DNA of 64,000 nt from Candidatus Kapaibacterium sp. (GCA_963665665.1 OY762428.1:1312001-1376000); one strand, 5' to 3'; shown: positions 11,338-53,000, counted from the stretch's first letter. Translations and numbers: made by a program. The notes: generated from the letters alone by a model not told the origin.

Positions 11338-11579
11338 TTTGCACCTTTACTGAATTGTCCCTTTACCAAAAAATTTTAATTTTTTCATTTATTTGTTTAA
11401 ATTAAATTTCTTTCAAAAGAAAGATGTTATTATAGAATTAAAAGTTACAAAAAATTTGAAAAAATATGTAACGAAATTTAAATTAAAGTGTCTCTAATAT
11501 TACATACGGGTAAGATAATGGAATGTTTCCCGTAATAATATTGGCAAAGGGTAATATATAATAAATCCGGAGAGGTAAC

Positions 11580-12311
11580 ATGAACAAAAAATTCCGCAAT
11601 TTCTTTACTGCTTTAATGGCTTTTGTTGTTTGCGCATCATTTAGTTACGCACAGAGCCTTGAATTCACACATCTGGAAACTGAGAAAACGGTTAATCCGG
11701 ATTCTTCATCTGCTGTTTTCCACGCCACTGTAAAAAACATCAGTTCTTCTGACGTCAGCGTTAAAATCACAGTGACCGAAGTTTCGGGTGAAGATGATTA
11801 CGACGTTTCCTGGTGCGATCCGAACTCATGTTATTTCCTTATGAATAATCCTCAGACTTCACCAGCATTCACATTAACCCCCGACGGAACAACCGAAGAA
11901 CAGTTCCATCTTGAAATATCTCCTTACGGTATTGAGGGTACATCAGTTGTGAAAGTTCGTTTTTTCAATGTTAATGATGAGAATGATTACATTGAGTTTG
12001 AAGCAATCGCAACTTTCGACAAAACAACATCTGTTACAAAGTTTACTATTCTTGAGAATAATTTCTCATCATTTGCCCCCAACCCGGCAAATAATGCTAC
12101 TTCATTTGATTTTGACCTTACCGGAATAGCAGATAAATCAACACTTGAAATTCACAGTGCTACCGGTGCTTTGGTAAAAACAATTAATATTACAAACCAT
12201 AGTGGAAATGTAACTATAAATACTTCAGATTTACCTCAGGGTATTTACTATTGCACATTGTTTGTTAACAGCGAAACAAGAAAAACACGGATTCTATCCG
12301 TAACAAGATAA
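11580..12311 (+). CDS. Secreted protein with T9SS type A sorting domain
   Basis: Signal peptide; C-terminal PNPANN...DLPQGIYY...ILSVTR. Confidence 0.8.
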   Translation: MNKKFRNFFTALMAFVVCASFSYAQSLEFTHLETEKTVNPDSSSAVFHATVKNISSSDVSVKITVTEVSGEDDYDVSWCDPNSCYFLMNNPQTSPAFTLTPDGTTEEQFHLEISPYGIEGTSVVKVRFFNVNDENDYIEFEAIATFDKTTSVTKFTILENNFSSFAPNPANNATSFDFDLTGIADKSTLEIHSATGALVKTINITNHSGNVTINTSDLPQGIYYCTLFVNSETRKTRILSVTR

Positions 12312-33494: not shown

Positions 33495-34667
33495 CAATGC
33501 CAAAACAAAATGAACACGCCCGGGTTTACCACTTTGACCTTTACGGGAAAAGAAATGAAAAATATGAATTCCTGAAGGAAAATACTCTTGATTCAATCCG
33601 GTGGAACGAGCTTGAAAACAGGAAACCGGAATATTTCTTTGTTAAAAAGGATTGGGAAGAGGAAATAGATTACTGTAAGGGATTTCGTCTAGATAAATTA
33701 TTTGAAAAATATGCTAGTGGTATTAAAACTCATGATGATAAAAATCTAATTTCAAATAAAAAATTCAATGAAAACAATAACAAGTATTTTTATAGACCAT
33801 TTGATGTTCAATTTATCAATTATGATTTGAATAAAGTTAAAAGACATAGATTTTCTTTGATGAAACATCTTATGGTAAATAATATAGCTATCCTTATTCC
33901 GAGACAAGCCATTACTTATCGATTTGGATTTTTTATCAGTAAAGGTTTAACAGATATTAATTATACAGGCACTGCCGGACAATTTGGGGCTGGTTTAACA
34001 TTCCCCCTCTATCTCTACCCCGAGGATAACGGGCAGCAGACTTTAGAGCAGGCAACCACCCCTGCTCCTCCGGCGGAGGGGAATAGGAAACCCAACCTGA
34101 ATATGGAAATTGTAAGCAAAATAGCCGGGAAGATAGGCGCAGGATTCGTTCCGGAAAAATTCCCCTCCGGTGGAGGGGTGGCGAGCGCAGCGAGACGGGG
34201 TGGTGTTTCCGACTCCTCCACCCGAGGGGTGGCCGAAGGCTCCCGACACGTCGGGACAGGCCGGGGTGGTGTTTCTTACTCCAACGGAGGAGATAATGGT
34301 GAGGTTCTGGCCCCGATAGACATTCTCGACTACATATACGCCGTACTGCATTCTCCCGCCTACAGGGAAAAATACAAGGAATTCCTGAAAATAGATTTCC
34401 CGAGGGTTCCCTATCCCAAAAACGCGGACACATTTTGGAAGCTTGTAAAGATCGGCGGCGAACTGCGGCAGATACACCTGCTGGAAAGCCCCGCCGTGGA
34501 AAACTACATAACCCAATACCCCGTTGACGGCGACAACACAGTAGAAAAACCCGTCTATGAACAAGGGGCTTCAGCCCCTTGCACCCCTCATACCGAAGGA
34601 GGGGATGAGGAACAAAACATTTCTTCTGATACAAATTCCCCTCCTCGTGGAGGAGGGGATAAAGGGG

Positions 34668-36023
34668 CATATGCGCTAACTTAGTGAAAATAAGTAATTC
34701 ATACTACTTTGCCTTTTTCGATGTCCTTCTTTTAGGCAATTAGAAACATCATCCCAGTTGTTAATACATTGATACAAAGTAATACCGGGACTGATGATTT
34801 TCAATAAAATATCTTTAACAAATACATTTTCACGCCATTGTGATGTACTCCTTTTATCATTCTCTTTTATTAAACCTGTAGCCCCAGGGGGAAAAACGCT
34901 CACCTTCATCGATAATAGCCTGAGTAAGGAGAGCTGTGATCATCTTAGCATAAAGCCACGCTCGTGCAGAGTTTTTATCTTTTTTTGGTAAATGCCCCAA
35001 GCCAAATTGACTTTTTAGTTTTTTAAATGAAATTTCAACCTGCCATCTCATTCTATATAATTCTAAGATATTATTAGAAGATATATCATTAATCAAAGAA
35101 GTCACCAAAACAATATAATCATTAAGTCCTAAAGCTGTAGAACTGATTGTCTGTTGTTTTCTAGCAAAATTCTTTTTTGCTTTCTTTCTGGATAACTCAG
35201 CTTGCTCCTTGCTTTTTTTGATAGCACATATACGTACAGGAATCTTTTTATTTTTTGAGGAGGAGGAGGAAATATAAAATATTTTGTCAAATATTTGATC
35301 TAACTTTAAACTTTTTAATTCTTTAATAATATCAACTTTATCATTTTTACTATTATATAGTGTAAAACCTTTATGCTTATATCTGACAACAAAATTTGCT
35401 TTCTTTCCGAGAATTTCTGAAATACCCTTATAACTGCAATATGCTCTGTCAATTAAAAAAAGATCAGAAGAGTTAATTTTGAAATTAGATATAGACTCAC
35501 CGACTTTTGGGCTGGTAATAATAAATTCGTCACACTTGAGGTTGAACAGATTATGGCTGTAATGAAGTCTCCAGTCAGTACCTGTTGACCCCGGCTCAGT
35601 AACAACAGACGCATCGATACATCTTACATTGAAATCCGACAGCCATTCTGGGGAATCTAATGATATCCCCCTATTATGAATCAATCCTAATGCAATCCAG
35701 CGAAGCCAATCAGCAGACGTCCTCATTTTTTTTAATAACGCAACATCTGATATATCTATATTTCTTTCATATTTAAGCTTAGTAGCAACCACCCTCATAG
35801 AATGCCCCGTTGCTACATGCATAAGTATTGCTCGAAGTTGCTCAGAAGGTGAATCAAATGCCCTGCGACGTTGGAAAGCCTGGAGTTCTTTAGCCTTTAA
35901 TTCCCATCCCAAAGGAAGTAAGGTTGTAACTACATCCCATTCTTCTATATGCTTGTTGTACTTTTCCATTTACAAATATAAAAAAATTATATATAAAAAT
36001 CAAACACTAAGTTAGCGCTTATG
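34668..36023 (-). mobile_element. IS4-family insertion sequence, 1356 bp
   Basis: 19-bp TIRs catatgcgctaacttagtg (34668-34686) and cactaagttagcgcttatg (36005-36023), 1 mismatch; 11-bp TSD ggataaagggg at 34657-34667 and 36024-36034. Confidence 0.93.
34857..35969 (-). CDS. IS4-family DDE transposase
   Basis: IDAS, LIDRAY, YRMRWQVEISFKKLK (YREK signature). Confidence 0.92.
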   Translation of the reverse strand: MEKYNKHIEEWDVVTTLLPLGWELKAKELQAFQRRRAFDSPSEQLRAILMHVATGHSMRVVATKLKYERNIDISDVALLKKMRTSADWLRWIALGLIHNRGISLDSPEWLSDFNVRCIDASVVTEPGSTGTDWRLHYSHNLFNLKCDEFIITSPKVGESISNFKINSSDLFLIDRAYCSYKGISEILGKKANFVVRYKHKGFTLYNSKNDKVDIIKELKSLKLDQIFDKIFYISSSSSKNKKIPVRICAIKKSKEQAELSRKKAKKNFARKQQTISSTALGLNDYIVLVTSLINDISSNNILELYRMRWQVEISFKKLKSQFGLGHLPKKDKNSARAWLYAKMITALLTQAIIDEGERFSPWGYRFNKRE

Positions 36024-36942: not shown

Positions 36943-38574
36943 ATGAGGATAGTATTTATTTCATTATTGTTGATTATAAATTTGAATGATATTGTTGCAA
37001 AAGAATTTTCCGCAAAAGAAATTTTCAATCTCTTTCACAATTCAGTAGCGACAGTTGTTTGCTATGAACAAGGTAAAGTTAGTTCTCAAGGAAGTTGCTT
37101 TTTCATTGATTCAAATATTATTGCAACCAATTATCATGTTGTTGAATGGAGTGATTCTGCATCCATTATTACAAGCTCAAAAGAATCAATTCCAATAAAT
37201 GAATTAGTAGCCTATGATATAAAAAATGATATTGCTCTGTTGAAAGTTGGAAGAAAGTTAGAACAAATGCAACTTCCAAAAATTAATTTTCATTATCCTG
37301 AAATTGGATCAGAATGTTTTGTAATTGGTACGCCAAAGGGGATGGAAAATACCTTTTCCCAGGGAATAATTTCATCCATAAGAACAGAAGACTCAAATAA
37401 TGTTTATATCCAAACAACAGCTCCAATATCTTCTGGTTCAAGTGGTAGTCCTTTATTTCTAAATAATGGAGAGATTTGTGGTATAATAACATCTCAATTA
37501 GTTGACGGTCAGAATATAAATTTTGCCAGACCTGCCAAATTAATTCATTCTTTACCTTTATCAGAATTTACATCACTTGAAAAACACTACAAATATTATG
37601 ATAATATCAGGCATATCAATATAACTACTATTGAGGCAGCCCTACATGCTTATGGTTGGAAATTAACTGATATATCGCCTGAAGATTTTAAAATTATAAT
37701 TACAGAAATTGCTTTATCAATACCTGATTTTAGTAAGGAAACAATTATCGATTTATCAACTGCAAAAAAAATTGTTTCAGATATATTAGGGAGAAAAAAA
37801 GTACCAGTTGAGAATAATGCAAGAAATAAATATATTGATGATTTTTATGATGATTTTTATGATGATTTTTATGATGATTATCATAATAATTATCATAATA
37901 ATTATTATTATGATAATTATTCAAATAACGATAACTATTCAGAGAACTCTTCATACCCTAACTTCATAATTATTAATGGTATAAAATTTTGTTTTGATTT
38001 CCACACTGATATAACTTCAGATTTAATCAATCCAGAAATAAAAAATGGTAAAATGAATATAGCAGTTAGCTTCGAATATGAATTTCTTTTCAGGCTTTAC
38101 AAATATTTTGATATTGGGCTTGGTATTCAAGCAATGCTGCCAAGGGATGTTTATTCTTTTGATGGTGATGGTATGTATAGTGAAGATTTTGTTAAGCAGG
38201 ATTTTTTACTCATACCAATTCATACAATATTTCATTTCAATTTTCTTAATTGGACAGATTTTCATTTCGAGAAATTTATTGCAAGATATACATCAGTCTA
38301 TCTATTAGGAAAATTTGGAATAATTCAATATGGTGAATTAATTGATATTAACGGAAAAAAAATTCTCTGCAAAAATTGGTTTAAAACTCAGGACATTAAA
38401 GATCATTCAGTATTTTCATTTGGTATTGGCTGGTCTGTAGAAAGTAAAAATGGAATTGGTTTCCTAGTAGAATTAACTTATCAGAATTTTACAAATTATT
38501 TTTCATTTGACCAAATGAAAAAGAAGACATTAAAATTAGATCAAATTCAATTCAATTTGGGTTTAAGATTTTAA
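36943..38574 (+). CDS. Trypsin-like (S1) serine protease with C-terminal beta-barrel-like region
   Basis: Signal peptide, ATNYHVV, NDIALL, ISSGSSGSP triad; ends QFNLGLRF. Confidence 0.8.
   Translation: MRIVFISLLLIINLNDIVAKEFSAKEIFNLFHNSVATVVCYEQGKVSSQGSCFFIDSNIIATNYHVVEWSDSASIITSSKESIPINELVAYDIKNDIALLKVGRKLEQMQLPKINFHYPEIGSECFVIGTPKGMENTFSQGIISSIRTEDSNNVYIQTTAPISSGSSGSPLFLNNGEICGIITSQLVDGQNINFARPAKLIHSLPLSEFTSLEKHYKYYDNIRHINITTIEAALHAYGWKLTDISPEDFKIIITEIALSIPDFSKETIIDLSTAKKIVSDILGRKKVPVENNARNKYIDDFYDDFYDDFYDDYHNNYHNNYYYDNYSNNDNYSENSSYPNFIIINGIKFCFDFHTDITSDLINPEIKNGKMNIAVSFEYEFLFRLYKYFDIGLGIQAMLPRDVYSFDGDGMYSEDFVKQDFLLIPIHTIFHFNFLNWTDFHFEKFIARYTSVYLLGKFGIIQYGELIDINGKKILCKNWFKTQDIKDHSVFSFGIGWSVESKNGIGFLVELTYQNFTNYFSFDQMKKKTLKLDQIQFNLGLRF
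37837..37905 (+). repeat. In-frame 12-bp tandem repeats
   Basis: gatgatttttat x3 then cataataattat x2 (DDFY/HNNY). Confidence 0.85.
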
Positions 38575-38622
38575 TAAATTCAAATTACTTTTTTTAACAA
38601 TTTTACTTATAAAGGGATAAGT

Positions 38623-39108
38623 ATAACTGAAGTAGATATTTTAATTAAAAAAACAGGAATTAATAAAGACCTATGCCTGAAATTCTTCTTTCTTTTCTCA
38701 AGATTCGAATACAGTTTGAAAAGGGCAGGTTATATGAAGAAGGGATATAGGGATATTTGTGAACCTGATTGGAATAAATTTCGTGATAAATACCAAGACA
38801 AAATTGAGGAAGATATTCTGAATGATAGTAGAATTATTTATTTAGTAAATAATCCCCCTAAGCAACAGATAATAAACTCTAAAAATAAAATTGGATGGAA
38901 AGATATTGAAAATAGGAACAAAGTAAAAAAATTGATTTTATCTCTAAAAACCATAAGAAACAATTTATTTCATGGAGGGAAATATCCATGTGGAGAAAAA
39001 GAAGAAGATGGTAGAAATAAAAAACTACTAGAACATGGTATTTATATATTATTATCATTAAAGGATATTGATACAAAAGTTAAAGAATACTTTGAATATG
39101 ATATTTAA
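38623..39108 (+). CDS. Hypothetical protein, putative HEPN (RX4H)
   Basis: IRNNLFHGGK; frame is open upstream of the TTG at 38716 through FFFLFSRFEYSLK, so start tentatively placed at ATA 38623. Confidence 0.6.
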   Translation: MTEVDILIKKTGINKDLCLKFFFLFSRFEYSLKRAGYMKKGYRDICEPDWNKFRDKYQDKIEEDILNDSRIIYLVNNPPKQQIINSKNKIGWKDIENRNKVKKLILSLKTIRNNLFHGGKYPCGEKEEDGRNKKLLEHGIYILLSLKDIDTKVKEYFEYDI

Positions 39109-39152
39109 TCCCCCCATCCTCAACTTAATGGCAGATGAGATGAAGCCGCCCT

Positions 39153-39434
39153 GTCCCCCGCTGGCAGTGGACAAATTCCCGATTAATCGGGACAAGCTGG
39201 GGCCGGCAGTAAGTGGAGTTCCGGAAAATTCCCCTCGTTGAGGGGTGGCGAGCGCAGCGAGTTCCCGACACGTCGGGACAGGCAGGGGTGGATTCTTTTT
39301 CTTAACCTCCCTTATCCACGAGCTAAAGCACGTGGCTATTGAACTTGATAAAAGGCGGGGGAGTTAATTCTATGATATTTAATTCTTATCCCCTCCTCGC
39401 GGAGGAGGGGATTATAGGGGAGGTCGGGGGAGGT
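39153..39434. repeat. Composite palindromic repeat cluster including one copy of the 132-bp array unit
   Basis: 39153-39296 resembles 40912-41031; 39285-39424 matches the unit of the 42-44.8 kb array. Confidence 0.85.
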
Positions 39435-40685
39435 TCACACCTGCAATATCTCGGCCATTGCCTGGACGCTCGGTTCGCTGCGCTGCTCCCCGGCGGTGGC
39501 AATTATGTAGTAGTAGTGGCGGGTCTGGGCGGCAACCTCGTAATCAAGGTAGCGTGTGGCGCTGGTTTCCACTATCTTGCTGAACGTTCCCGGAGGGTCG
39601 TTTATGGGGGTTATCGAGCGCCATATCTCATAAAGATCGGCACGTGCGGATTCCGCCCATGTCACTTCCACATTGTTCTGTTCCACCCTCGGGGCGGGGG
39701 CATCGCCCGGGGCTGCCGGCGCTCCGCTGTAGTGGGCATAAACCCAGGCCGGCGGCAGCAGCGTGTCATCAAGTTCGGCTGTGATCGGAGCGGTAAAATC
39801 GCCGTAGCCGTGCTGGTTGCGGGCACGAACGCAGAACTCCCAGTTTCCCGCACCGGGGAAAAAGTTGCTGCTTGTTTCGCTGCCATGATAGCCCTGCTCC
39901 CAGTTGTCCGAGCTCCCGGCAGCACGGTATGCCAGCTGGTAGCTCGTGGCTGTTTCCACTGCATCCCATGAGAAAATTCCCGTATCGAAATTGTAGGTGA
40001 AATCCGCAGGAACGCCGGGAAGCCTGCCGCCATGCCGCGGCCTGGGGTTCACCATGCCGATATAATCAATCCTCGCGTCCTCTTTGCCCATAACGGCAAA
40101 CCACCAGGACTTCAGGGAATTCAGCTTTTTGGTATCATATTCTATCAAATCTGTCAGCTCTGTGGTGGCGTGCTTTGCCTCTGCTCTTTCCACGTCCTGA
40201 GCTTCCAGCGCGGCCTTGAAATCCGTCATTGCCGTGGTCAGCCTTGTTATCAGAACGTCAGGGATAAGATGCACAATCCCTTCGGCCTGATGCCTTGCAT
40301 GAACGTTCAGCACATTTTCCACCCGCGCTATACACTGATACCTTTCCTGCGGGTAAGCCGTATCGAAATCAAAATCCTCCAGGTTCACCGGGTCGTCCAC
40401 GTAGGCGGCCATTCCCGTGCTGCGGCAGTTCTGGTATTCTTCCTCCATTTTTTCTTCTTTCAGCGTAACATCCAGGGTTGCGCCCTCGCTTTCTCCGTGC
40501 TCGGTTTCGGAACCGCTCCATTTCTGCATAAAAATATCATAGCATCCCGAAGCCCATCCGGTAATTTCCGGCGGGGCGTTTAATTCGGGCTGAATAACGG
40601 GCAGGTTTGCCTGTATGGTGTGCAGACGCTCGGCGCGAACGCCGTAAGAATCTCGAGAGAAAATGTTATCAAGGATAATAGCCAT
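39435..40685 (-). CDS. Hypothetical protein with C-terminal fibronectin type III-like domains
   Basis: AAAGGAG upstream; helical N-half; FSWDAV...SYQLAYR...FCVRARNQHGYG and VTWAES...YYYIIAT FN3-like strands. Confidence 0.75.
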   Translation of the reverse strand: MAIILDNIFSRDSYGVRAERLHTIQANLPVIQPELNAPPEITGWASGCYDIFMQKWSGSETEHGESEGATLDVTLKEEKMEEEYQNCRSTGMAAYVDDPVNLEDFDFDTAYPQERYQCIARVENVLNVHARHQAEGIVHLIPDVLITRLTTAMTDFKAALEAQDVERAEAKHATTELTDLIEYDTKKLNSLKSWWFAVMGKEDARIDYIGMVNPRPRHGGRLPGVPADFTYNFDTGIFSWDAVETATSYQLAYRAAGSSDNWEQGYHGSETSSNFFPGAGNWEFCVRARNQHGYGDFTAPITAELDDTLLPPAWVYAHYSGAPAAPGDAPAPRVEQNNVEVTWAESARADLYEIWRSITPINDPPGTFSKIVETSATRYLDYEVAAQTRHYYYIIATAGEQRSEPSVQAMAEILQV

Positions 40686-40775
40686 AATTATAGCTCCTTT
40701 ATTATTTTGAAAAATAACGGGATTGTATTATCCCGCGGATATTATTTTAAATTTGTTGCTTGATTGCCTCCGGAC

Positions 40776-41110
40776 TTCTTTTTCCGATTGAAGTTATTAT
40801 AGTTGCCGGGATGTCATTCTGAGCGAAGCGAAGGATCCATTCTTTATGCACTATCTGCAAACGAAAATGGATTCTTCTGTCGCTTCGCTCTGTCAGAATG
40901 ACGGATGGGAATGTCCCCCGCTGGCGGGGGTGTCCGAAGGACGGGGGTGGACTTCCGGAAAAATTCCCCTCGTTGAGGGGTGGCGAGCGCAGCGAGTTCC
41001 CGACACGTCGGGACAGGCTGGGGTGGATTCTTCACACACTATCTGCAAACAAAGATGGATTCTTCCGTCGCTTCGCTCCTGAAGCCTGCCCCGACGTGTC
41101 GGGGAATGAC
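40776..41110. repeat. Cluster of palindromic elements (GTCATTCTGAG...AGAATGAC pair, CCCC/GGGG hairpins, CCCGACACGTCGGG inserts)
   Basis: Direct reading; shares segments with 29347-29429, 34160-34270, 39153-39296 and 44791-44874. Confidence 0.85.
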
Positions 41111-41340
41111 AACATAACACCTCATTCTTTTGCTCAGTTTACCCATTCTTCCACCCCAATGAACAGGCCGCAGGACTTAATTCCCTATCCTGTGGTTTCA
41201 ATGAACCGGATAATTTCCTTACTTCAATGCTGTTTTGAACCAGAATTCAAATGTTTGGGCTAATTGCTTTGTTGGCAGGGCTTTAAACTGCCTTGGCCGG
41301 AGGTATTGAACTACTGTTTGGCCTTATTGTAGTGAAATTT

Positions 41341-41860
41341 GGCCTTATTGAGGACTTGTTTAGCCTTATTGAGGACTTGTTTGGCCTTATTGAGGACTTG
41401 TTTGGCCTTACTGAGGACTTGTTTGACCTTATTGAGGTCTTGTTTGACCTTACTGAGGACTTGTTTGACCTTATTGATGTCTTGTTTGACTTTACTGAGG
41501 TCTTGTTTGGCCTTACTGAGGACTTGTTTAGCCTTACTGAGGACTTGTTTAGCCTTATTGAGGTCTTGTTTGGCCTTACTGAGGACTTGTTTGACCTTAT
41601 TGAGGTTACTCATTATCTTCAAACAAGGCATCATTATCTTCAAACAAGGCAGCAATGACTCCGACCAAGGCGTCAATGCCTTCAAACAAGGCATCAATGA
41701 CTCCGACCAAGGCAGCAATAAAGCAAAACATTGCTGCAATAGCTTCAACCAAGAGTTCATTATCTTCAACCAAGAGTTCATTATCTTCAACCAAGGCAGC
41801 AATGACTTCGAACAAGGCAGCAATAAAGCAAAACATTGCTGCAATAGGTGCAAACAAGAC
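41341..41860. repeat. 21-bp-period tandem repeats (two consecutive families)
   Basis: ggccttattgaggacttgttt about 12-13x (41341-41606), then cattatcttcaaacaaggcag-type units. Confidence 0.9.
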
Positions 41861-42481
41861 CTCAATACCTCTGACCCCTCCCAAACCCTCCCCGAAGGAG
41901 ATGGCTTTGATGGAAAATAAGGAGGCAATGGGTTCGAACATCGGTGCATTACCATAGACCCTTCCTACCTCCCCCCGTCCCCCTCCTTCAAAAGGAGGGG
42001 GAGTTAATTCTATGTTATTTAACTTCTTATCCCCTCCTAAAGTAGGAGGGGAATAAAGGGGTGGATTCTTTTTCTTAGCTTCCCTTATCCACGAGATAGA
42101 GCACCTGGCTATTGAATTTGATGAAAGCAGGGGGAGTTAATTCTATGATATTTAATTTCTTATCCCCTCCTAAAGTAGGAGGGGAATACAGGGGTGGTTT
42201 TGTTTCTTAGCTTCCCTTATCCACGAGATAGAGCACCTGGCTATTGAATTTGATGAAAGCAGGAGGAGTTAATTCTATGATATTTAATTTCTTATCCCCT
42301 CCTAAAGTAGGAGGGGAATACAGGGGTGGTTTTGTTTCTTAGCTTCCCTTATCCACGAGATAGAGCACCTGGCTATTGAATTTGACGAAAGCAGGGGGAG
42401 TTAATTCTATGATATTTAACTTCTTATCCCCTCCTAAAGTAGGAGGGGAATACAGGGGAGGTCGGGACAGGAAGCAGGAAT

Positions 42482-42883
42482 TCATTTCTTTGTCCATCCG
42501 AATTCAGAACTAATGGCATTAAGAACTGTTTCCGGATTTTCAAGAACAAGTTCATTTTCAAATCTCAGTACTTTTATTCCATAGGCTTCAAGAAATAAAT
42601 TCTTTTCATTGTCATATTCTTTTTGATGAATTAAATGATGAATTTCACCATCAAGCTCAATACCGATTTTTTCCTCCGGACAATAAAAATCAAGAATATA
42701 ATCACCAATACTATGTTGACGCCTGAATTTATTCCCTCCAAGCTGTCTGTTTTTCAGAAACATCCATAAACGGCTTTCTGCCTTTGTCGGATTGTTTCGT
42801 AGATCTTTTCTGAAAGTTTTCAGATATCGCAAGTTATTTAGTCTACATTTCATGATATTCCTTTCAATTCCTGTCTTCTTCAT
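42482..42883 (-). CDS. DUF559 / Vsr-like endonuclease domain protein, copy 1
   Basis: LRNNPTKAESRLW, KFRRQHSIGDYILDFYC, IELDGEIH, GIKVLRFEN. Confidence 0.9.
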   Translation of the reverse strand: MKKTGIERNIMKCRLNNLRYLKTFRKDLRNNPTKAESRLWMFLKNRQLGGNKFRRQHSIGDYILDFYCPEEKIGIELDGEIHHLIHQKEYDNEKNLFLEAYGIKVLRFENELVLENPETVLNAISSEFGWTKK

Positions 42884-43329
42884 CCTTCATGAAGAAGTAT
42901 ATTGGATTGTTTCTTATTTAGTCCTTTTCTTTCTACCTCCCCCCGGCCCCCTCCTTCAAAAGGAGGGGGAGTTAATTCTATGATATTTAACTTCTTATCC
43001 CCTCCTAATGTAGGAGGGGATTATAGGGGTGGATTCTTTTTCTTAGCTTCCCTTATCCACGAGATAGAGCACCTGGCTATTGAATTTGATGAAAGCAGGA
43101 GGAGTTAATCTTATGATATTTAACTTCTTATCCCCTCCTAATGTAGGAGGGGAATACAGGGGTGGTTTTGTTTCTTTGCTTTGGAACCTTGCACCTTTAT
43201 CCACGAGATAGAGCACCTGGCTATTGAATTTGATGAAAGCAGGGGGAGTTAATTCTATGATATTTAACTTCTTATCCCCTCCTCGGGGAGGAGGGGATTA
43301 TAGGGGTGGTCGGGACAGGAAGCAGGAAT

Positions 43330-43731
43330 TCATTTCTTTGTCCATCCGAATTCAGAACTAATGGCATTAAGAACTGTTTCCGGATTTTCAAGAACAAGTT
43401 CATTTTCAAATCTTAGTACTTTTATTCCATAGGCTTCAAGAAATAAATTCTTTTCATTGTCATATTCTTTTTGATGAATTAAATGATGAATTTCACCATC
43501 AAGCTCAATACCGATTTTTTCCTCCGGACAATAAAAATCAAGAATATAATCACCAATACTATGTTGACGCCTGAATTTATTCCCTCCAAGCTGTCTGTTT
43601 TTCAGAAACATCCATAAACGGCTTTCTGCCTTTGTCGGATTGTTTCGTAGATCTTTTCTGAAAGTTTTCAGATATCGCAAGTTATTTAGTCTACATTTCA
43701 TGATATTCCTTTCAATTCCTGTCTTCTTCAT
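43330..43731 (-). CDS. DUF559 endonuclease domain protein, copy 2
   Basis: Protein identical to copy 1; one synonymous difference seen (tcttagtac vs tctcagtac). Confidence 0.9.
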   Translation of the reverse strand: MKKTGIERNIMKCRLNNLRYLKTFRKDLRNNPTKAESRLWMFLKNRQLGGNKFRRQHSIGDYILDFYCPEEKIGIELDGEIHHLIHQKEYDNEKNLFLEAYGIKVLRFENELVLENPETVLNAISSEFGWTKK

Positions 43732-44164
43732 CCTTCATGAAGAAGTATATTGGATTGTTTCTTATTTAGTCCTTTTCTTCCTACCTCCCCCCGCCCTCTC
43801 CTTCAAAAGGAGGGGGAGTTAATCTTATGATATTTAACTTCTTATCCCCTCCTAATGTAGGAGGGGATTATAGGGATGGATTCTTTTTCTTAGCTTCCCT
43901 TTTCCACGAGATAGAGCACCTGGCTATTGAATTTGATGAAAGCAGGAGGAGTTAATTCTATGATATTTAACTTCTTATCCCCTCCTCGGGGAGGAGGGGA
44001 TTATAGGGGTGGTTTTGTTTCTTAGCTTCCCTTATCCACGAGATAGAGCACCTGGCTATTGAATTTGACGAAAGCAGGGGGAGTTAATTCTATGATATTT
44101 AACTTCTTATCCCCTCCTAAAGTAGGAGGGGATTATAGGGGAGGTCGGGACAGGAAGCAGGAAT

Positions 44165-44566
44165 TCATTTCTTTGTCCATCCGAATTCAGAACTAATGGC
44201 ATTAAGAACTGTTTCCGGATTTTCAAGAACAAGTTCATTTTCAAATCTCAGTACTTTTATTCCATAGGCTTCAAGAAATAAATTCTTTTCATTGTCATAT
44301 TCTTTTTGATGAATTAAATGATGAATTTCACCATCAAGCTCAATACCGATTTTTTCCTCCGGACAATAAAAATCAAGAATATAATCACCAATACTATGTT
44401 GACGCCTGAATTTATTCCCTCCAAGCTGTCTGTTTTTCAGAAACATCCATAAACGGCTTTCTGCCTTTGTCGGATTGTTTCGTAGATCTTTTCTGAAAGT
44501 TTTCAGATATCGCAAGTTATTTAGTCTACATTTCATGATATTCCTTTCAATTCCTGTCTTCTTCAT
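44165..44566 (-). CDS. DUF559 endonuclease domain protein, copy 3
   Basis: Protein identical to copy 1. Confidence 0.9.
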   Translation of the reverse strand: MKKTGIERNIMKCRLNNLRYLKTFRKDLRNNPTKAESRLWMFLKNRQLGGNKFRRQHSIGDYILDFYCPEEKIGIELDGEIHHLIHQKEYDNEKNLFLEAYGIKVLRFENELVLENPETVLNAISSEFGWTKK

Positions 44567-44790
44567 CCTTCATGAAGAAGTATATTGGATTGTTTCTTAT
44601 TTAGTCCTTTTCTTCCTACCTCCCCCCGGCCCCCCCCTTCGAAAGGAGGGGGAGTTAATATTATGATATTTAACTTCTTATCCCCTCCTAATGTAGGAGG
44701 GGATTATAGGGGTGGATTCTTTTTCTTAGCTTCCCTTATCCACGAGATAGAGCACCTGGCTATTGAATTTGATGATGATAAGGCTGGAAG

Positions 44791-44874
44791 GTCATTCTGA
44801 GCGTCAGCGAAGAATCCATTCTTCATGCACTATCTGACTAAAGAAGATAGATTCTTCACTTCGTTCAGAATGAC
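44791..44874. repeat. Inverted-pair element GTCATTCTGA...TCAGAATGAC
   Basis: gtcattctgagcgtcagcgaagaatc ... gattcttcacttcgttcagaatgac. Confidence 0.8.
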
Positions 44875-45258
44875 CGCTTTTCTAACCTTTTAGAAAGCCC
44901 CATGAGGGAAATCCTCTTTGCTTTCGGATAGGACAGCTGACAGAGCATCGGAATATACTAAGGGTATATCAATTGTCAAAGAACTATTGATATGATGAAA
45001 TATGTTATAAATGCCCGAAAGATTGCCGATTGTAATTCACATTACTGCAAGAATTTATGAAATTATTTATAAAAATACAAATGGAATTATTGAAAAAATC
45101 CTGAAGAAAATGAAGACAAATAAAACCGGATTGAATATGATTAAGTAATTGATACAATTGTTCCACTGGAACAGGAAGAAAAAATAACAGCTCAAGATAT
45201 CGCCAGATTGAATAAAATGCTCGCAAAATTTGAAGGTGTAAATATCCCATAATATCGT

Positions 45259-45723
45259 TTACTTATTTTCCTTCGATATTTCCAACGCTTCAATTATTGA
45301 TGAAAAAAGTAGAGAATCGCTGCAATCCTTATTACTAATTTCGATTTTCTCATCGTTATATTCCTTCAAAGCCCATCCCGGCCTACTTTTATCATAGTAT
45401 ATATATGGAGTAATTGTAGTTTTTTCTCCATAATCCTTTATACAACAGGAACAAGAAGTCCTGTATAATTTTGAGAAGGATTTTTGCCCCATCTTATCCA
45501 GCAAAAATCTTTCTCTCTCTTTACACTTTTCGCGAGGCGGCCTTATAACATCAATTCTGCTGCTGTTTAAAGCTATTTTAACTTTCTGAAGAAATAAATC
45601 TGTTTCAATATCTATTGGCAAAACAAAAATTGGTTCATCAGAAATAGTAATTCCTTCAACAGATTCTGAATTTGTTACTATGATAAATTCTTTTTTAGTT
45701 TGATATATATAACACATTTTCAT
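45259..45723 (-). CDS. Putative immunity protein (CdiI-like)
   Basis: Third small ORF behind RHS toxin; ALNSSR...LLDKMGQKSFSKLYR pattern reminiscent of CdiI proteins. Confidence 0.5.
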   Translation of the reverse strand: MKMCYIYQTKKEFIIVTNSESVEGITISDEPIFVLPIDIETDLFLQKVKIALNSSRIDVIRPPREKCKERERFLLDKMGQKSFSKLYRTSCSCCIKDYGEKTTITPYIYYDKSRPGWALKEYNDEKIEISNKDCSDSLLFSSIIEALEISKENK

Positions 45724-45773
45724 GATTTAATCCACAACATTTATAGAGATATGCCACGCCTTTACACCTCCTA

Positions 45774-46352
45774 TCATATTTCCCCATCCCATCCGTTGTA
45801 GCAGCCTGCCAGTCCCTGCCAGAAAAGTAGATAATCCTCACCTCCGGCAGCAATTGAAGCTTTCAGAGCTATATCACATTTGTCGTCGTAACTAAATGTA
45901 TCTTCTTTACTTTTCAATTCATTACAGTATTGTACAAATACGATTGCCAGAGCATCAAGAAAAGAAAACTGATCTCGTGCACAACTGTAAAATGTCCTTG
46001 GCTCGATATCATCAGCTTCCATAAATTGTATTTTCCCATTCAGATGATTTATCACAATTGCATCATCAGAATATTCTGCAACAACCTGACAATGATCCGG
46101 GTAAACAACCGTTTCGGAAATATCAAAATTCAGCCCTGCAAATCCGAAATTTTCCAATTCATAATTCATAAGCAAATCTTCAACCGGTTTACCTGAGAAT
46201 TTCTGATTAGCTTTTTTCTCAAAATTCAATTCAATCACAAATTCTTGAGAAAGAGAATCCCCAAGCCCGGCAGCAATCATTTCATCATAGCCAGGTGCGT
46301 TTTCATTAACAATATTATAGAATTCTTGTGCTGTCATTATAACACATATCAA
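45774..46352 (-). CDS. Putative immunity protein (acidic, SUKH-like possible)
   Basis: Position behind RHS; IVINHLNGKIQFME...CARDQFSFLDAL. Confidence 0.5.
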   Translation of the reverse strand: MICVIMTAQEFYNIVNENAPGYDEMIAAGLGDSLSQEFVIELNFEKKANQKFSGKPVEDLLMNYELENFGFAGLNFDISETVVYPDHCQVVAEYSDDAIVINHLNGKIQFMEADDIEPRTFYSCARDQFSFLDALAIVFVQYCNELKSKEDTFSYDDKCDIALKASIAAGGEDYLLFWQGLAGCYNGWDGEI

Positions 46353-46365
46353 TTATTTATTGGAA

Positions 46366-47016
46366 TCACCCCTTAAATATCCTGGGTTCTTTGATACCAT
46401 TGTCCTTCATAAATTGTTTTAATTCTGCAATTTTTTCATCTGCATCTTCTTTTGACAGATAAGTATTTATGATTTCAATATACATATTTCTCCATGATTC
46501 CTTCTTTATATCAAAGTAATCATATATCGAACTTCCATTCCTAAGTAAATAAATAGCAGATGTCATATAAGGAATTGAATTAATGTGCTTATAAATTCTG
46601 GTTGGTAAATGTCTAATTTCTTCATATGAACATCTGATATATTCTGTGAATTCTTGATAACCTGGATTTTTATATCCAATTCCTGTTTTCGACCAATCTA
46701 ATTCAAATGGATAGCAATCTAGTTCTTTAAATAATGGAAATTCCCTATTATAATTTGAATTAGTTCCAACATATTTCCATATTGCATTGCCTTTATTATT
46801 TCTCGGCATACTAAAAACCTTTACTGCTTTGATAAGTAATTTTTGCCTAATTATACTTTCAATTTGAATTTTTTTACATATATCAATTTCAATATAGTCA
46901 TATACTTTTGCTATTAATGAAGATACATCTTTAAAGTCAACAATTTCACAAAATGAATATCCCAAGTCTGCTAATAATTTAAATCGATATATTCTTCCTG
47001 ATTTTTTATGTTTCAT
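46366..47016 (-). CDS. Putative cognate immunity protein of the RHS toxin (Imm26-like N-terminus)
   Basis: Starts 23 bp after the toxin stop with GAGG upstream; GRIYRFKLLADLGYSFC pattern. Confidence 0.6.
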   Translation of the reverse strand: MKHKKSGRIYRFKLLADLGYSFCEIVDFKDVSSLIAKVYDYIEIDICKKIQIESIIRQKLLIKAVKVFSMPRNNKGNAIWKYVGTNSNYNREFPLFKELDCYPFELDWSKTGIGYKNPGYQEFTEYIRCSYEEIRHLPTRIYKHINSIPYMTSAIYLLRNGSSIYDYFDIKKESWRNMYIEIINTYLSKEDADEKIAELKQFMKDNGIKEPRIFKG

Positions 47017-47039
47017 AACTTTTACCTCTTAAAATATGT

Positions 47040-50000
47040 CTACTGTTTTTTGAATATAGTCTCCCAATTTGGAATATTATGATTTAACCAATCTCTTGCT
47101 GCAGATTTATATATTTCGTTAACTGTAGCTCTAATTTTATTAGCAGTTCGGTTTATGGCTCCTGCCCTAACTTCAGCTTTAGTTTTAAAACCATTCAATT
47201 CAATAATAAGTTGTTCAATTCCTTTTGCTATTCCAATATTCGGAATATTCCCTTCAAGTTCTTCAAATGCTCTAATAGAATTTTCTAATACGAATTCTAA
47301 CGAATATCTGCCTCCTCCAATTGCATTCATTGTAATTCCAATATATAATTTTTTTTCAGACAATTCTTTTAGCGTTTTAAAATAATGATATACCGTATAC
47401 CCATTTTTAACTTTTTCGAGAGTACCAAAATTGGAACCTAATAAACTGGAAATCTTTCCAATATTTTTTAATGATTTCACAATTGTTTGATAACTTGTAA
47501 CACTGGCATATACCGTATTAAAACCAGTTAAGTATCCATCACTATCTACAATCCAACCATTCCATCTCCTCTCTCCAACAATAAACCGAGAAAGACCTGA
47601 TAATTTAGGTAGCACCTGCCCACCTTCCCAATCAAGATTCACTATTTCATAATATTCAGGCAAATACCATCCAGCTTTACCGTAATCATTGCCTTCATGA
47701 TAAATTCTCGTTTCCTTTTTTCTATATTGGGTAGTTCCATCATCAGCAAAATATGGATCCCACATTATTGTTTGCTCATCACCTTGCTTACCAACGCCCC
47801 AAACAGCTTCTTTCCCATTTTGAGTTATGATATTTTCATCCAAACCCATCGGATCCACGAAAACAATTGGATTATTACCAAAAGATATGTAGCCGGAGAC
47901 ATCGGGTTTCACTACCGGGTCCAGCTTTAGCCAGCGGGCAATATCCGGATCGTATAATCTGTGGAGAGTTGTATACCCCTTCCCCTCTCCCCTGAATTCC
48001 GGATCCTGTTCCATGCCGTTGAAGCCGAAGCGGTAAGCGGGGCTGTTGGCGCTTATCCATGTTTGCGCCAGGCCGAAGGGATAATAATTATTGATGGCCA
48101 GCGGCGTCAGGTTGAATGCGAAATTCTCGCGGTCGGCATTCAGGTTGACAGGCTGCTTTATATCTCCTATCAATGCACGCAGGTTGCCGAGGTGATCCTT
48201 GTACTCGTATTCCTTGAAGCCAAGCTGCCGCTCGTTGGTTGCCGGAGTGAAATTAAAATAAGGATGCGAAGCAATTGCTACAGCTTCGGGATAAATAATA
48301 TTGCCGTTATCGTCGGGGTATTCCGTGGAATTATCCGAATCCTTTTCAGGACGAACTGTTGCTATGCGCCCCATGGCGCCCGAACCATACACAAACCACT
48401 CGCGGACATCCAGCCAGAAGAAAGGCATGCAGGTAGTTTCTTCCAGTTTTCCCATTGTTTCATAAACGGCAAGTACGGTATTATTGGCATCAGGGATATA
48501 GTAAGTTCCCTTCATCTGCACCTGGCCGAAACATTCACTGCAATTGCTGATCTCATCCCTGGCCGCCATAAGCTCAGGCGAGTATGTCAGCTTTGCCACC
48601 CTGGTTCCGGAAGCGTCGTAAAGGAAACGCGTTTCCATTGTAAAATCGCTTGCCGGAGCGCAATCTATATTCGGCAGCAGATCGCTTTTTATATTCCTGA
48701 TGATCTTGCCGTTATGATCCCATACCATCGTGTTAGTATAAGTATCCTGCCCGATGCTGCTTTCAGTATCAAGGTTCCCGATATCGTCATAAGTATAATC
48801 AACAGTACCAGCGCCCTTAACCGCCGAGATCAGTTGATTATTCGTTCCCGATATATTCATCATCACATCATTGCTGTTTCCGCCATTATCACCCCGGAAA
48901 ATGGTTCTTATGTTCCCGTTGGCATCGTAGTGATATGCGCTTTTCAGCCTTTCCGACTCGGCATTCCAGGTATTAACATATTTATTCCTTTTCGATCGGG
49001 TCAGCCTGTTCAGGTAATCATACCGGTACTGGTAACCATTTCCGATTTCATTCAGTGTAGAAGGTGCTTTCAGCCCAAGATAAAATTTCAGAGAATCATC
49101 AAAAGCATACTCGGCGGAGGCAATATTCCCGTTATATAGATTCACAAGGCCCGGCAGACGATCAACTGAACCAAGCAACGCCGGATTTACCGGGTAGATA
49201 AAATCGTTTTCGTAATAATTCAGCACATAGCCAAAAGCATCGGGGGCTGTCTGAGTTCCGTAGTCCTGGTTAATTCCCGCCCTGTAACCCTGGACGCCGC
49301 CGTTCACAGCTTTAAGCTTGCCGTCGGCAGTATAGTAATAATCGTCGGCAGTTATCAGGTCCTCGCCCGTAACCGTGCGCTGCAAAGGCCCGTGAGGATA
49401 ATATTCATAGCGGTTGTCCCTGTCCCAAAGCTTCCCATTCCTTGAGCTGAGAGCAAGTGAAATTTTATTATCGGCGTCATACTCGAACATCTGGTGGAAC
49501 TGGTCGGCGCGGCCGGAACAATAATGCACCTGCCGGGTATTCCCGCTGATAAGGTCGTACTCGTAGTCAATTTTCATGCTGATAGTTTCCGGCAGGAAGG
49601 TTTCCTGGCCCTGGAACATAGCCCATTCCATAAGCGGTATTTCCTGCACCAGCCACTTAATATTTCCATGCAGATCGTAACTGTAGGAGGTAGCCACTGT
49701 AAAATGACTTCCGAGCGGCTCAGGCAGCCGTCCGCCCTCCCGGTTATTATAATGAACGGCATAGCTGAGCCTATTTCTTAAATTGTCCTGCTGTAGATTT
49801 TCGTAAGGAATTTTGAAAGCGCCAAAGGGTTTGGTATAGAAATATTCGGTATATGAAACCCTGTCAATAAGCGGATCAGGATAAAACCTGTCATTCGCGG
49901 GATTTCCGTTTGCAAAAACTGTCTCGTCGTAGGCAATCTCGCCTTTTTCAATCACACGGTTCTGCAAATCGTACTTAACATAGGAAATCAGCGGCGGGGC

Positions 50001-53000
50001 GTTAGCCTTCTGCACGGCGTCGCGCGAAAACCTGAGGCGGCCGAAATCATCGTAGAAATATTCCTTCGGCAGTATTTCATCCGGGGATTTTGCGCTTACA
50101 ACATTGCCAAGCGAATTATACTGGTACATACTTTTGTAGCCATGCTCCGGATGCTCCAGCCTGCCAGTCCTTGTTCCGTCAATATCCACCCCCTTTGGCG
50201 GCACTGTTTGAACAAGATTTCCGGCGCGGTCGTAATAAAACAGGGTGAAATGGTTATAATCCACATCATACTTTACCGTAAACTCCTCGTTTATCAGCGA
50301 AGGATCGTCCATAATAGCAGCTATTCTTTCTCCAATCTGTTCTTTACCCTGCTTAATCAGTTCCTTTCGGCAGCTATTCATCTGCGCATTAAGCGAGTTT
50401 ATCAGAGCCTGTTCAATTTCGTCGTTACAATCCCGGAGTGTCAATACCTTCTCAATATTATCCTCATCATATTCCCTGTCAATCCACCGGAAGCAGAGTT
50501 TGGGATTGCCTCCATTAAATTCAATCGCAGAACAAAGAAATGTATAATCCTGAGGAGTAGGAAAACCTTTACATATGTTAAGAGGCTTATCTAAATATTC
50601 AAAACTTCTGGAAAGAAGAAGATAATCTATTAATTCTCCGTTATTATAGTAGTTATTAATAACAAAACGATCATAATATTTAATCTTCCATATTGATGTT
50701 TCCAAATTGTAACAATTATTTCTGGTTTCAACATTTATCCATTTATCTTTTGGAAAGAATACCCATTCATTAAAGGCAAGTCCGTTTTCATCTTTATAGA
50801 ATGAGGAATAATGAGGATAAGGCATATTGGTATAATGATTATATTCAGGATTGTTTTCCGGTATTGCCCATGGATGTTGTTCAGTTCTTGGTACGACATT
50901 TACAAATTGATCAGTAGTTTCACAACTATAACATTCGTCAAAACTTAATGTTTGGTCAGTACAAATATCATTTAACATATCAAAAGCAGCTTTAATCAGT
51001 AGGCAATTGACCTGCCTCATTAAACTATCGCCACTTTCTGCTGCATATTCATCTGCAATGATATTAACATTATATGGTATATAATCTTCGAGGCCTTCTA
51101 TTAGATAATCCAGTCTCATATTCAAAAAATCAACAATAAATTTTTTATATGCAATATCCGTTGGAATATTTAGGGTTGTGTTATCATAAGAATATTGATT
51201 ATCATATAAAGTAGTCCAATAACTTGGACATGGCGGATCATCTCCTGCAAGTTTTAATTCATAATCAGCATACATTGAATTGTGGAAATTTTCTCTGGCA
51301 TTCAAATCACCGAGAGCAATTTCCCCAAAATTATCCCTTCTGATATTAAGCTTACAACCTCCCTTGCAGTGGGCTACCAGGATATCAACATAGTCATCTG
51401 CTGCATCTTCAGTCAGATAATGGTTTATATTTAAAATTTGATCACCATTTGCATCAACCGGATACGGATTCCAATCACTTATATAAATATAATCATCACA
51501 ACTATTGTTTTCCGGATTGGGATCAAAGTATTTGTCATCATAAATAGCATAGTCATTATCCCTGTGCAGTTTGATAATACTCGCCCTGAAGTTTCTTTCC
51601 TCGCAACCGTCCTCGCATTGATCAACCAAAAGAGCTACCATTTCCTCAACACATTCCATATCAATATCGCCGGTAGCAGGGTCAAGACAGTGAGAAAGAT
51701 CTACATAGTCAAACACCCCGGACAAAAACGGATCATTATCAACTTCATCCTTCTTTTCTTTTATCTTACTTTTTACCACATCATAGGGAAGAGTTGCAGC
51801 AACGCATTGGTAAAAATTATTCCACTCGTCCGAAGTAAAACTATCCGGATCAAGATCAATGCTTTGTGTTACAATTGGCGGTATCGTTGCAGAAAATGAA
51901 AAATTTGGAAATACAGCGCTAAAATTTTCCTCGCATAATTCCTGATAAAATTCCAGATTACTTATATTATTTGTAAATGCCGGGAAATAATAGAAATATT
52001 CAAATGCGTAGTCAATATAGCCCTTTCCATATTGCTGCGATGTTTGTGTATTATCCCACAGGCCATTAATATCGGTTTCACTTGCGTATCCTCCTAATCC
52101 ACCGTATGGATGATTGGAAATTCCCTTTATCTTCCTGCCTGTACAATCCAGAAAAGCGTTAAGCAGGTTAAAGTCTTCGGAAGGAACCCGTACTATTGAT
52201 CCGTCGCTCCTTACAACATTGTTCCCGGAAGCGTCAATATATTCCTCAGTACCCTGGGCAACAAACATTTCCACAGCATTTACCCAGCAATCACAGAATT
52301 CATCCTTTTCATAATCTTCATATTCAATGGTACTTTGCATGTTTCCTATTAAGGCATCAAAAGCGCCGTTACCCCCGGTACTGTATGGAGATATTTCTGG
52401 AATAATTTTTTCAATATCCCCGTCACGGTTCATGTCTCCCCAGAAATATGAAGAAATATTTTCACTATTCAGAACAGTTTCATTATCTATATCTCCAAAA
52501 TTTGTTGTATAAGGATCATAGCACAAACTGATTAGCTCAACAGCTTTATCTTTAAGGTATTCTTCATAACTTCCTACAATTTCGCAAGTCTGCTCGCATG
52601 TAACAATACTGATTTTCGCTTCAGAGCAGCACCCGATTTGTTTAGTAAATATATTTTCCTCCGAATTATAAACCCAGCCAATATCAAGGAGTTCATAAGT
52701 ATCAGAAGGATCGTCAGCAACATGGAAGAGCCTCGTTAAATCCGGCTCAGTACTGATCATTATCGAGTTTATCAACGAACTGACCTGAGTGATTTCTATG
52801 TTCCAGTCATTTTCAACGGCAGTTTTTACTTTATCTGTAAAGTCCTGCTCAATTTCAGAAACATCAAATCGGATGTATTTTTTTGCTTCATATTTACCAC
52901 TTCCGAGCAAATCTTTACCATTTGGATTACCATCAAAAGCCCATGATTTGGTATAAACAATCGGGGCATCAGCGTCCCGGTCATCGCAGGTCGGATACTC

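Follow-up and report, generated by a model that had tools for sequence, protein, structure and literature searches.

We describe an array of three identical nuclease genes of the DUF559 family, which are embedded among palindromic repeats in the genome of Candidatus Kapaibacterium sp. (GCA_963665665.1). The window, i.e., the whole stretch of DNA that was analyzed, comprises 64,000 nucleotides (OY762428.1, 1312001-1376000), and positions are counted from its first letter unless the genome is named. Three open reading frames (ORFs) on the minus strand, spaced by 848 and 835 bp, encode the same protein of 133 aa, and their DNA differs by one synonymous site at position 43414 in the second copy. 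Each gene occupies a 472-bp cassette lying between blocks of hairpin-forming units (Table 1), and the genome holds no further copy of the cassette. An initial annotation, made from the sequence alone, had reported the three identical ORFs and their spacing, units of ~132 bp carrying 4, 3, 3, and 1 main hairpins per block with varying loops, and hairpins facing inward on both sides of each gene. This description agrees with the ORF coordinates, the output of Tandem Repeats Finder, and the hairpin start positions for all three genes.

The main hairpin of a unit has the form CCCCTCCT-N5-AGGAGGGG and is followed by six nucleotides and then by GGGGTGG or GGGGAGG. A period of 132 bp was detected at 41991-42462 (3.6 copies, 96% matches) and at 43806-44145 (2.6 copies, 90% matches). 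Every block opens with one hairpin having a TCAAA or TCGAA loop, in the arrangement ACCTCCCC-N4-CCCCCTCCT-TCNAA-AGGAGGGGG. Each gene is bracketed on the left by hairpin-N6-GGGGWGGT, which ends at the cassette edge (42427-42462 for the first gene), and on the right by ACCTCCCC-N-hairpin, which starts at the other edge (42935-42970), with the GGGGWGGT or ACCTCCCC element facing the gene. Identity among the three cassettes stops sharply, directly after GGWGGT on one side and directly before ACCTCCCC on the other; two sites vary within the 472 bp, versus ~5-10% of sites in the flanking units. Two histories fit this boundary: the cassette may recently have been copied into place between units older than itself, or the flanks may have been converted ectopically from their many other copies.

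The protein matches the Pfam family DUF559 (PF04480) over residues 21-126 (E = 2.5e-32, 111.4 bits, cut-off 20.6) and the structural-genomics entry 3HRL of PDB over residues 31-123 (E = 1.5e-16). DUF559 itself is a very large family without an assigned function. Residues D65, E76, D78, H82, R107, and E109, which are putatively catalytic, are invariant among 28 aligned relatives and are kept in this protein. Only DUF559 and MTES_1575 were obtained at E<=0.01 in the Pfam scan of the protein, with no match to the Vsr model PF03852. Judging from its score against the YcjD equivalog NF007294 (83.8 bits, versus a curated cut-off of 218), the protein is a relative of YcjD and not its orthologue. The closest protein relatives are 62-66% identical and come from other lineages.

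The main result of this study is positional: the gene and the hairpins are supported as belonging together across distant genomes. Co-occurrence with DUF559 genes, for which the initial annotation had proposed a comparison across genomes, has been counted at the loci of the best 80 of 590 confirmed relatives (46-66% identical), taken from contigs of one genome per species. These loci span at least seven phyla (Bacteroidota, Acidobacteriota, Verrucomicrobiota, Planctomycetota, Calditrichota, Spirochaetota, and Proteobacteria). Hairpins with a stem of at least 7 bp and a G+C content of at least 60% were counted within 300 bp of the gene: 60 loci have one upstream and 60 downstream, 48 have them on both sides, and 72 have one on either side. 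Control windows of the same size, placed 600-900 bp away, contain one in 1 of 75 and in 6 of 77 cases. With few exceptions the arms read CCCCTCC(T) or differ from it only slightly, and the pyrimidine arm comes first. The two flanks resemble each other (at least 30 bits) as direct repeats in 31 and as inverted repeats in 24 of 73 loci, and in none of 73 control pairs. Among viral contigs, 9 of 14 DUF559 loci have flanking hairpins, 8 of them on both sides, and a more distant clade on these contigs (37-42% identity) uses CCTCCCCC arms.

Hairpins have also been counted over whole genomes of the phylum. An exact hairpin is present in 50 of the 301 genomes sampled, and genomes with a close homologue (E<=1e-41) carry one in 13 of 15 cases, versus 37 of 286 for the others. 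In some genomes the gene is accompanied by all the exact hairpins there are: the only two flank the gene in G097 and G177, and the only one adjoins it in G265 and G165. One of two adjoins the gene in G301, and in G155, G259, and G181 two or one hairpins stand beside it among the matches listed.

The genome under study has five DUF559 loci, four of which lie within 57 bp of a strict hairpin, versus 1.85% of 2000 random windows having one within 150 bp. A paralogue of 131 aa (genome positions 2708320-2708715, 41% identical) is placed between direct copies of its own, different family of two-hairpin doublets (2707977-2709043), in which each hairpin has a mirror element fitted to its own arm. A DUF559 pseudogene (631490-631708) sits between a third kind of module. 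The present case is a complete genome whose hairpin expansion is the largest of those sampled; it combines a tandem gene array with three lineages of DUF559, and a distinct kind of module accompanies each lineage.

A genome-wide count of the hairpin family, which had also been suggested by the initial annotation, gave 116 exact sites of CCCCTCCT-N3-8-AGGAGGGG in the 5.46-Mb genome, so that the repeat is not confined to this locus. Because the same pattern read backwards gives 0 sites, the family cannot be ascribed to chance. The number rises to 142 when one mismatch per arm is allowed, and most copies are doublets 51 nt apart. There are 11 gaps of 300-3500 bp between hairpins of this family, three of which are the DUF559 cassettes; the others include 21-bp arrays, phage-like genes (Mu Gp36, CHAP), and one 416-aa ORF, with no second recurrent cargo among the 11. 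An integron-like cassette array has been rejected as a description of the locus, since the repeats occur at ~60 dispersed loci and no integrase family was found among the window ORFs scanned. A search of 6 same-family and 11 same-order genomes gave no hairpin, and where DUF559 was matched at all among the former, in two genomes, the scores reached only E 1e-15 to 1e-20. Since these 17 genomes are without the hairpin and the nearest homologues come from other lineages, the family, judging from its distribution, has expanded recently in this lineage.

At one site in Pedobacter, one species has the arrangement doublet-gene-doublet, a second has two tandem DUF559 cassettes, and two congeners are without the gene, one of which keeps a decayed hairpin there.

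A relation that the initial annotation had not remarked is that the element following the hairpin, N6-GGGGWGGT, repeats the purine arm read backwards, i.e., it is a mirror repeat. A pyrimidine arm, loop, purine arm, second loop (here 6 nt), and mirror arm together form a potential intrastrand triplex, and this places the units in a known and unexplained class of repeats. The BoxC and PIT (potential intrastrand triplex) elements of Hoyne and Maher are reportedly of this class. A mirror element is found on the outer side of 116 of the 142 hairpins of this genome. It follows the arm when the arm changes in other loci, CCTCCCCTT occurring with GGAGGGGTT and TCTCCCCT with AGAGGGGT. In doublets composed of unlike hairpins (the paralogue's family and locus L005) each mirror element matches the hairpin to which it belongs and does not match the opposite end. 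This speaks for a mirror repeat, since a stem that simply closes the doublet would not need such a match. For the doublet taken as single-stranded DNA, however, the predicted fold also has two hairpins with the outer elements closing them (-26.8 kcal/mol, z = -5.0; none of 200 shuffles did as well), in a calculation that models Watson-Crick pairs only. An Rfam search of 38500-46000 at E<=0.1 gave no match.

A described repeat of the same layout is TMECO of Escherichia coli, which has a pyrimidine arm, loop, purine arm, short loop, and mirror purine-rich arm (PMC4666352), and occurs in many conserved copies, often as convergent pairs. The second loop is 6 nt here versus 3 nt in TMECO, and the sequences differ: the TMECO consensus of that paper has 0 matches in this genome and 23 in E. 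coli K-12. By their layout the hairpin units would belong to the same class as TMECO, as a different sequence family. Stable triplexes of TMECO-type motifs have been obtained in vitro, the motifs mark loci that are unstable in E. coli, and Holder et al. reported no mobility gene, enzyme, or activity associated with them (PMC4666352). In the present genome, unlike in that description, a DUF559 gene lies inside the array. In E. coli K-12 the DUF559 gene ycjD (11408-11761 of the extracted locus L094) has a TMECO motif at 11206-11240, 168 bp beyond the gene end; it is one of the 23 motifs on the chromosome, and the chance expectation of such a neighborhood is ~0.004 by arithmetic. The assignment of ycjD to DUF559 comes from the RefSeq annotation and the naming of NF007294 as PRK09767; a PF04480 profile search over 14 named genomes gave no E. 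coli match. Several of the E. coli TMECO sites form convergent pairs 50-90 bp apart.

The initial annotation had interpreted the array as a selfish system, an analogue of repetitive extragenic palindromic (REP) sequences and their REP-associated tyrosine transposases (RAYTs). This interpretation is partly supported, because of the linkage in 72 of 80 loci, the genomes whose only hairpins adjoin the gene, the paralogue with its own hairpin family, and a RAYT-like gene whose REPs are unrelated. REP and REPIN sequences and bacterial interspersed mosaic elements (BIMEs) are short G+C-rich palindromes of tens to hundreds of copies, often in inverted doublets or arrays; a single small gene dedicated to them sits in their midst, flanked by repeats left and right, and units without a gene are in the large majority. 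The hairpins studied here are likewise dispersed palindromes occurring mostly in pairs, and the gene is flanked by them. Several differences are evident. The enzyme is a nuclease of the PD-(D/E)xK Vsr fold, where that of RAYTs is an HUH Y1 transposase; the gene can occur in several copies, and a search of close relatives did not find it, so that single-copy vertical inheritance does not apply; and the units carry strand-asymmetric pyrimidine and purine arms with a mirror element. In addition, the genome's true RAYT-like gene, its only Y1_Tnp gene (genome positions 1821817-1822161), is flanked by different REPs of its own, of the kinds GCTCCGTAGGAGC and GCCCCTACGGGGC. These are unrelated to the DUF559 hairpins, the nearest of which is 44 kb away, and this speaks against the RAYT as their mover. 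Within the window, the statement of the initial annotation that no HUH or tyrosine recombinase is present was borne out for the 37 of 39 ORFs of at least 130 aa scanned against Pfam, a scan that left out the end-cut ORF 1-985 and in which gene copies 2 and 3 share the protein of copy 1.

The gene has likewise been compared with other selfish and repair nucleases. I-Bth0305I is said to be a free-standing homing endonuclease gene of Vsr-like (EDxHD) type. It is listed with VSR/DUF559 in Table 1 of PMC3424549. Genes of this type belong to the same group of the nuclease superfamily as ours, are small and selfish with a potential to spread through the repair of breaks, and have a similarly patchy distribution that includes phage contigs. 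Our gene differs from them in that it does not lie in an intron, intein, or conserved host gene, its presumed target is a dispersed repeat and not a unique gene, and no clean empty allele was found at the Pedobacter site. E. coli Vsr is reportedly the nuclease of very-short-patch repair. Vsr, and VsrA of Caulobacter (PMC12907096), resemble our protein in having the DUF559/Vsr fold and in being, possibly, nicking enzymes able to harm host DNA; here, unlike for Vsr, there is no adjacent C5 methyltransferase, no PF03852 match, and three tandem copies lie inside repeats. No C5 methyltransferase family was found among the window ORFs scanned, and the sole PF00145 match of the genome (3835668-3836903) is 2.48 Mb from the array. 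With insertion sequences (ISs) and miniature inverted-repeat transposable elements (MITEs), the system shares a gene-bearing unit with repeat ends and many gene-less short derivatives. It differs from them in that Pfam detects no transposase fold in the cassette, the cassette boundaries show no target-site duplication, its ends are hairpins that fold on themselves, and direct flanks are as frequent as inverted ones.

On these grounds we propose, as a reading with about an even chance of being right, that the DUF559 gene and the pyrimidine/purine hairpin modules constitute one selfish, horizontally moving unit. The module is made up of an arm rich in C and T, a loop, the purine arm that pairs with the first, and, in most cases, the purine arm once more in mirror form; on paper it can be folded as a hairpin or as an intrastrand triplex. 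Most likely, the small Vsr-fold nuclease would recognize the module and cut or nick it, and the break would then be mended by host homologous recombination from another copy. Such mending would copy the gene between modules in the manner of a homing endonuclease and would change the number of units in an array. The gene-less modules, mostly doublets in this genome, would be the non-autonomous majority, as MITEs are to ISs and REPINs to RAYTs. The three tandem genes would have arisen when the flanking 132-bp units recombined, through unequal crossing-over or through gene conversion, and the nuclease may have promoted this. We know of no strand-transfer chemistry for a PD-(D/E)xK nuclease, and hence the likeness to RAYT is one of layout and not of mechanism; the nuclease alone more likely spreads via host recombination. 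Of the earlier interpretation, the layout and the linkage stand, and the nicking of the hairpins by the protein and its amplification of itself and the repeats are hypothetical. If correct, this reading would add a second enzyme class to the systems of repeats with a dedicated gene, which so far are represented by REP/RAYT.

The anatomy of the array, the linkage across genomes, and the recent expansion in this lineage are observed, and we infer every enzymatic step of the proposal. Several results weigh against it. The gene is present at 1 of ~60 repeat loci, and gene-less tandem doublets elsewhere are unoccupied, which implies that any homing is rare or extinct in this genome. Unequal crossing-over between 132-bp units can explain three tandem copies without a nuclease, and ectopic gene conversion of the flanks from ~100 other copies could equally give the sharp identity boundary. 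No single fixed architecture holds for all loci, since the two flanks of a gene may be either direct or inverted repeats of each other. The mirror element was found at only 59 of the 159 flanking hairpins of the 80 foreign loci, so that the hairpin is the constant part. The class of arm is not clustered on the protein tree, requiring 22 changes versus 21-23 in the 10 of 200 shuffles printed; this is a quick tree of ~115 residues, in which 10 hairpin-less loci were not counted and an internal stop in one sequence (L073) was read as X. Three genomes with close homologues (G193, G111, and G091) have no exact-arm hairpin adjacent to the gene among the matches listed, and 8 of the 50 hairpin-bearing genomes, including G125 with 17 hairpins, have no DUF559 match at E<=1e-10. 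Co-occurrence at the genome level has been dropped as a test: DUF559 is found in 42 of the 50 hairpin genomes versus 100 of the 251 others, and Y1_Tnp is enriched too, with 45 of 50 versus 175 of 251. Since this measure is non-specific, the weight of the linkage rests on position. Lastly, the gene-less Pedobacter sites consist of replaced intergenic DNA between conserved flanks and are not clean excision sites, and no target duplication was seen.

A broader and more tentative idea, which we hold as possible and to be doubted more than believed, is that small DUF559 nucleases are the missing enzyme partners of the intrastrand-triplex repeats, including BoxC, PIT, and TMECO. The enzyme would recognize the module in its folded pyrimidine-purine-purine form, not as a duplex sequence, and would cut it, and host repair would copy the gene and modules. 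If this were true, a nuclease-only mobile element would be distributed across many phyla, and E. coli ycjD makes the idea testable at once. The link between DUF559 and triplex repeats gives both of them a hypothesis open to simple experiments, and a nuclease able to read such a module in folded DNA would be interesting for practical purposes as well. No paper linking DUF559 to repeats was found in the literature searched, which covered titles and the openings of abstracts, with subscription journals and supplements outside the search.

An unlikely alternative to the selfish unit, and the one that survives best, treats the gene as a passenger: the modules would be moved by another transposase or by plain recombination, the cassette would be cargo triplicated by unequal crossing-over, and the nuclease would have an unrelated job such as very-short-patch repair or defense. 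It would account for the at least 113 of 116 hairpins that have no gene beside them, the restriction of the cassette to one locus, and the eight hairpin-bearing genomes without a DUF559 match, and the 132-bp units offer ample homology for crossing-over. Unlinked pairs of nuclease and methyltransferase do exist, since VsrA of Caulobacter, a DUF559-domain protein, is functionally linked to a cytosine methyltransferase encoded at a distance on the chromosome (PMC12907096), and the present genome has one C5 methyltransferase. Its distance of 2.48 Mb and the failure of PF03852 to appear among the Pfam matches at E<=0.01 tell against a repair role. The passenger explanation also leaves without cause the flanking of 72 of 80 loci across phyla, the genomes whose only hairpins adjoin the gene, and the paralogue with its own matched hairpin family. 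Furthermore, no linked mobilizing enzyme was found: the RAYT-like gene has other REPs, and the only transposase in the window is IS4-like (34857-35969), 6.5 kb away.

It is more improbable still that the nuclease serves as a guardian of the genome. In this explanation replication would be stalled by hairpins, cruciforms, or triplexes of the modules, the structure-specific DUF559 nuclease would remove them, and a repeat-bearing genome would fare better with the gene, which would keep gene and repeats linked although the enzyme moves nothing. The stable triplexes and unstable loci reported for TMECO-type motifs (PMC4666352), the good predicted folding of the doublet as a single strand, and the position of the gene inside the densest array of the hairpin family are in its favor. 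However, a factor acting in trans needs no linkage at one locus, and nothing else is there to guard in genomes whose only hairpins adjoin the gene. The patchy distribution over phyla and the presence on viral contigs are also more in keeping with a mobile unit than with a gene for maintenance.

The copy number of the cassette, three, rests on a single 5.46-Mb contig assembly, and we have compared it with short-read contigs of four runs. The short-read contigs do not confirm three copies: none spans the array, and none contains 31 letters on both sides of a cassette boundary. Among the contigs listed there is one cassette contig per run, and its word depth versus that of a single-copy neighbor is 50.1/46, 22.9/22.5, 29.8/34.3, and 9.2/5.1; contig word depth is not a copy number, and uncovered parts are uninformative. 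The T at 43414 that marks copy 2 is unseen in these contigs, where run X2 reads C. The right end of the cassette occurs in two versions in runs of one sample (TTTCT in X1, TTCCT in X2 and X3), which means at least two copies or a mixed population. Two joints, 41812>44611 and 43181>44852, were considered as deletions and rejected, because their sides of 21-23 letters lie in repeats; they have been taken as other copies of the composite. A collapse of the array to one copy, which the initial annotation had named as evidence against itself, is thus favored in part by depths near those of single-copy contigs, and opposed by the limits of contig depth and by the two right-end versions.

That the assembler over-expanded the array from one cassette, or a variable number of them, is about as improbable as the guardian role, since against the near single-copy depth in all four runs, the unspanned array, and the unseen marker of copy 2 stand not only the two right-end versions and the weakness of contig depth as a copy number, but also the orderly differences of three blocks in loops, linker, and a 12-nt insertion, the assembly into one contig, and the independent occurrence of two tandem cassettes in a Pedobacter genome. 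The linkage of gene and hairpins stands even with one copy.

The features of the array are listed in Table 1. The repeated stretch of the window extends from ~40790 to 44870, with a further module at 39200-39430.

Table 1. Features of the repeat array and its surroundings in the window (H1, hairpin opening a block; H2, main hairpin of a unit; single positions are starts).
Feature	Position	Strand	Description
Isolated module of the same families	39200..39430	+	Hairpin 39390-39410, then GGGGAGGT; separated from the array by a GC-rich 416-aa ORF
Composite repeat, left part	40790..41966		GTCATTCTGAGCG palindrome; hairpin-plus-mirror modules ~40915-41030; 21-bp arrays 41315-41605 and 41610-41826
Repeat block 1	41967..42462	+	ACCTCCCC 41967-41974; H1 41980-42000, loop TCAAA; H2 (loop AAAGT) 42031, 42164, 42296, 42428, with N6 and then GGGGTGG or GGGGAGG after each; last element GGGGAGGT 42455-42462 abuts cassette 1
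DUF559 cassette 1	42463..42934	-	472 bp, this locus only; gene 42482-42883, 133 aa
Repeat block 2	42935..43310	+	ACCTCCCC; H1 42948-42968; H2 42999, 43132 (loops AATGT), 43276 (loop CGGGG); one unit with a 12-nt insertion; end GGGGTGGT 43303-43310
DUF559 cassette 2	43311..43782	-	Gene 43330-43731; holds the synonymous difference 43414
Repeat block 3	43783..44145	+	ACCTCCCC; degenerate H1 43795-43815; H2 43846, 43979, 44111; end GGGGAGGT 44138-44145
DUF559 cassette 3	44146..44617	-	Gene 44165-44566
Repeat block 4	44618..44775	+	ACCTCCCC; degenerate H1 44631-44651, loop TCGAA; H2 44682-44702; GGGGTGGA; 62-nt linker of the 132-bp unit, in part
Right end of the repeated stretch	44776..44880		Long GTCATTCTGAGCG...CAGAATGAC palindrome, another dispersed family

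The two adjoining 21-bp tandem arrays contain 13.9 and 10.3 copies and belong to a composite of ~1.2 kb (~40790-42060) that precedes hairpin doublets and recurs at ~50 loci of the genome. The period of 21 nt keeps several frames open in these arrays, and Pfam gave only sub-threshold, coiled-coil-like matches for them. Palindromes of the GTCATTCTGAGCG...CAGAATGAC type (~40815-40900 and 44790-44880) bound the repeated stretch and have ~90-120 other copies by BLAST. The GC-rich 416-aa ORF (39435-40685, minus strand) is wedged among repeat modules, and its sole Pfam match is a weak fn3; a second copy of it is found near 5.3068-5.3080 Mb of the genome, likewise between hairpins. The genome is 5.46 Mb in size, and the six same-family genomes of the sample are 2.7-3.5 Mb.

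Other neighbors in the window are as follows. A Type ISP/IIG restriction-modification gene is apparently split into a methylase part (29569-31464) and a Type_ISP_C part (33497-34684), which are separated by genes with Bro-N and KilA-N domains, and the IS4-like DDE transposase gene comes next. On the other side of the array, an ORF of 2744 aa (45259-55274, minus strand) has YD/RHS-like repeats by eye, with no Pfam match at 1e-5. It is followed by three small ORFs, one of which is weakly CdiI-like, and this arrangement resembles a polymorphic-toxin/immunity locus beside the array.

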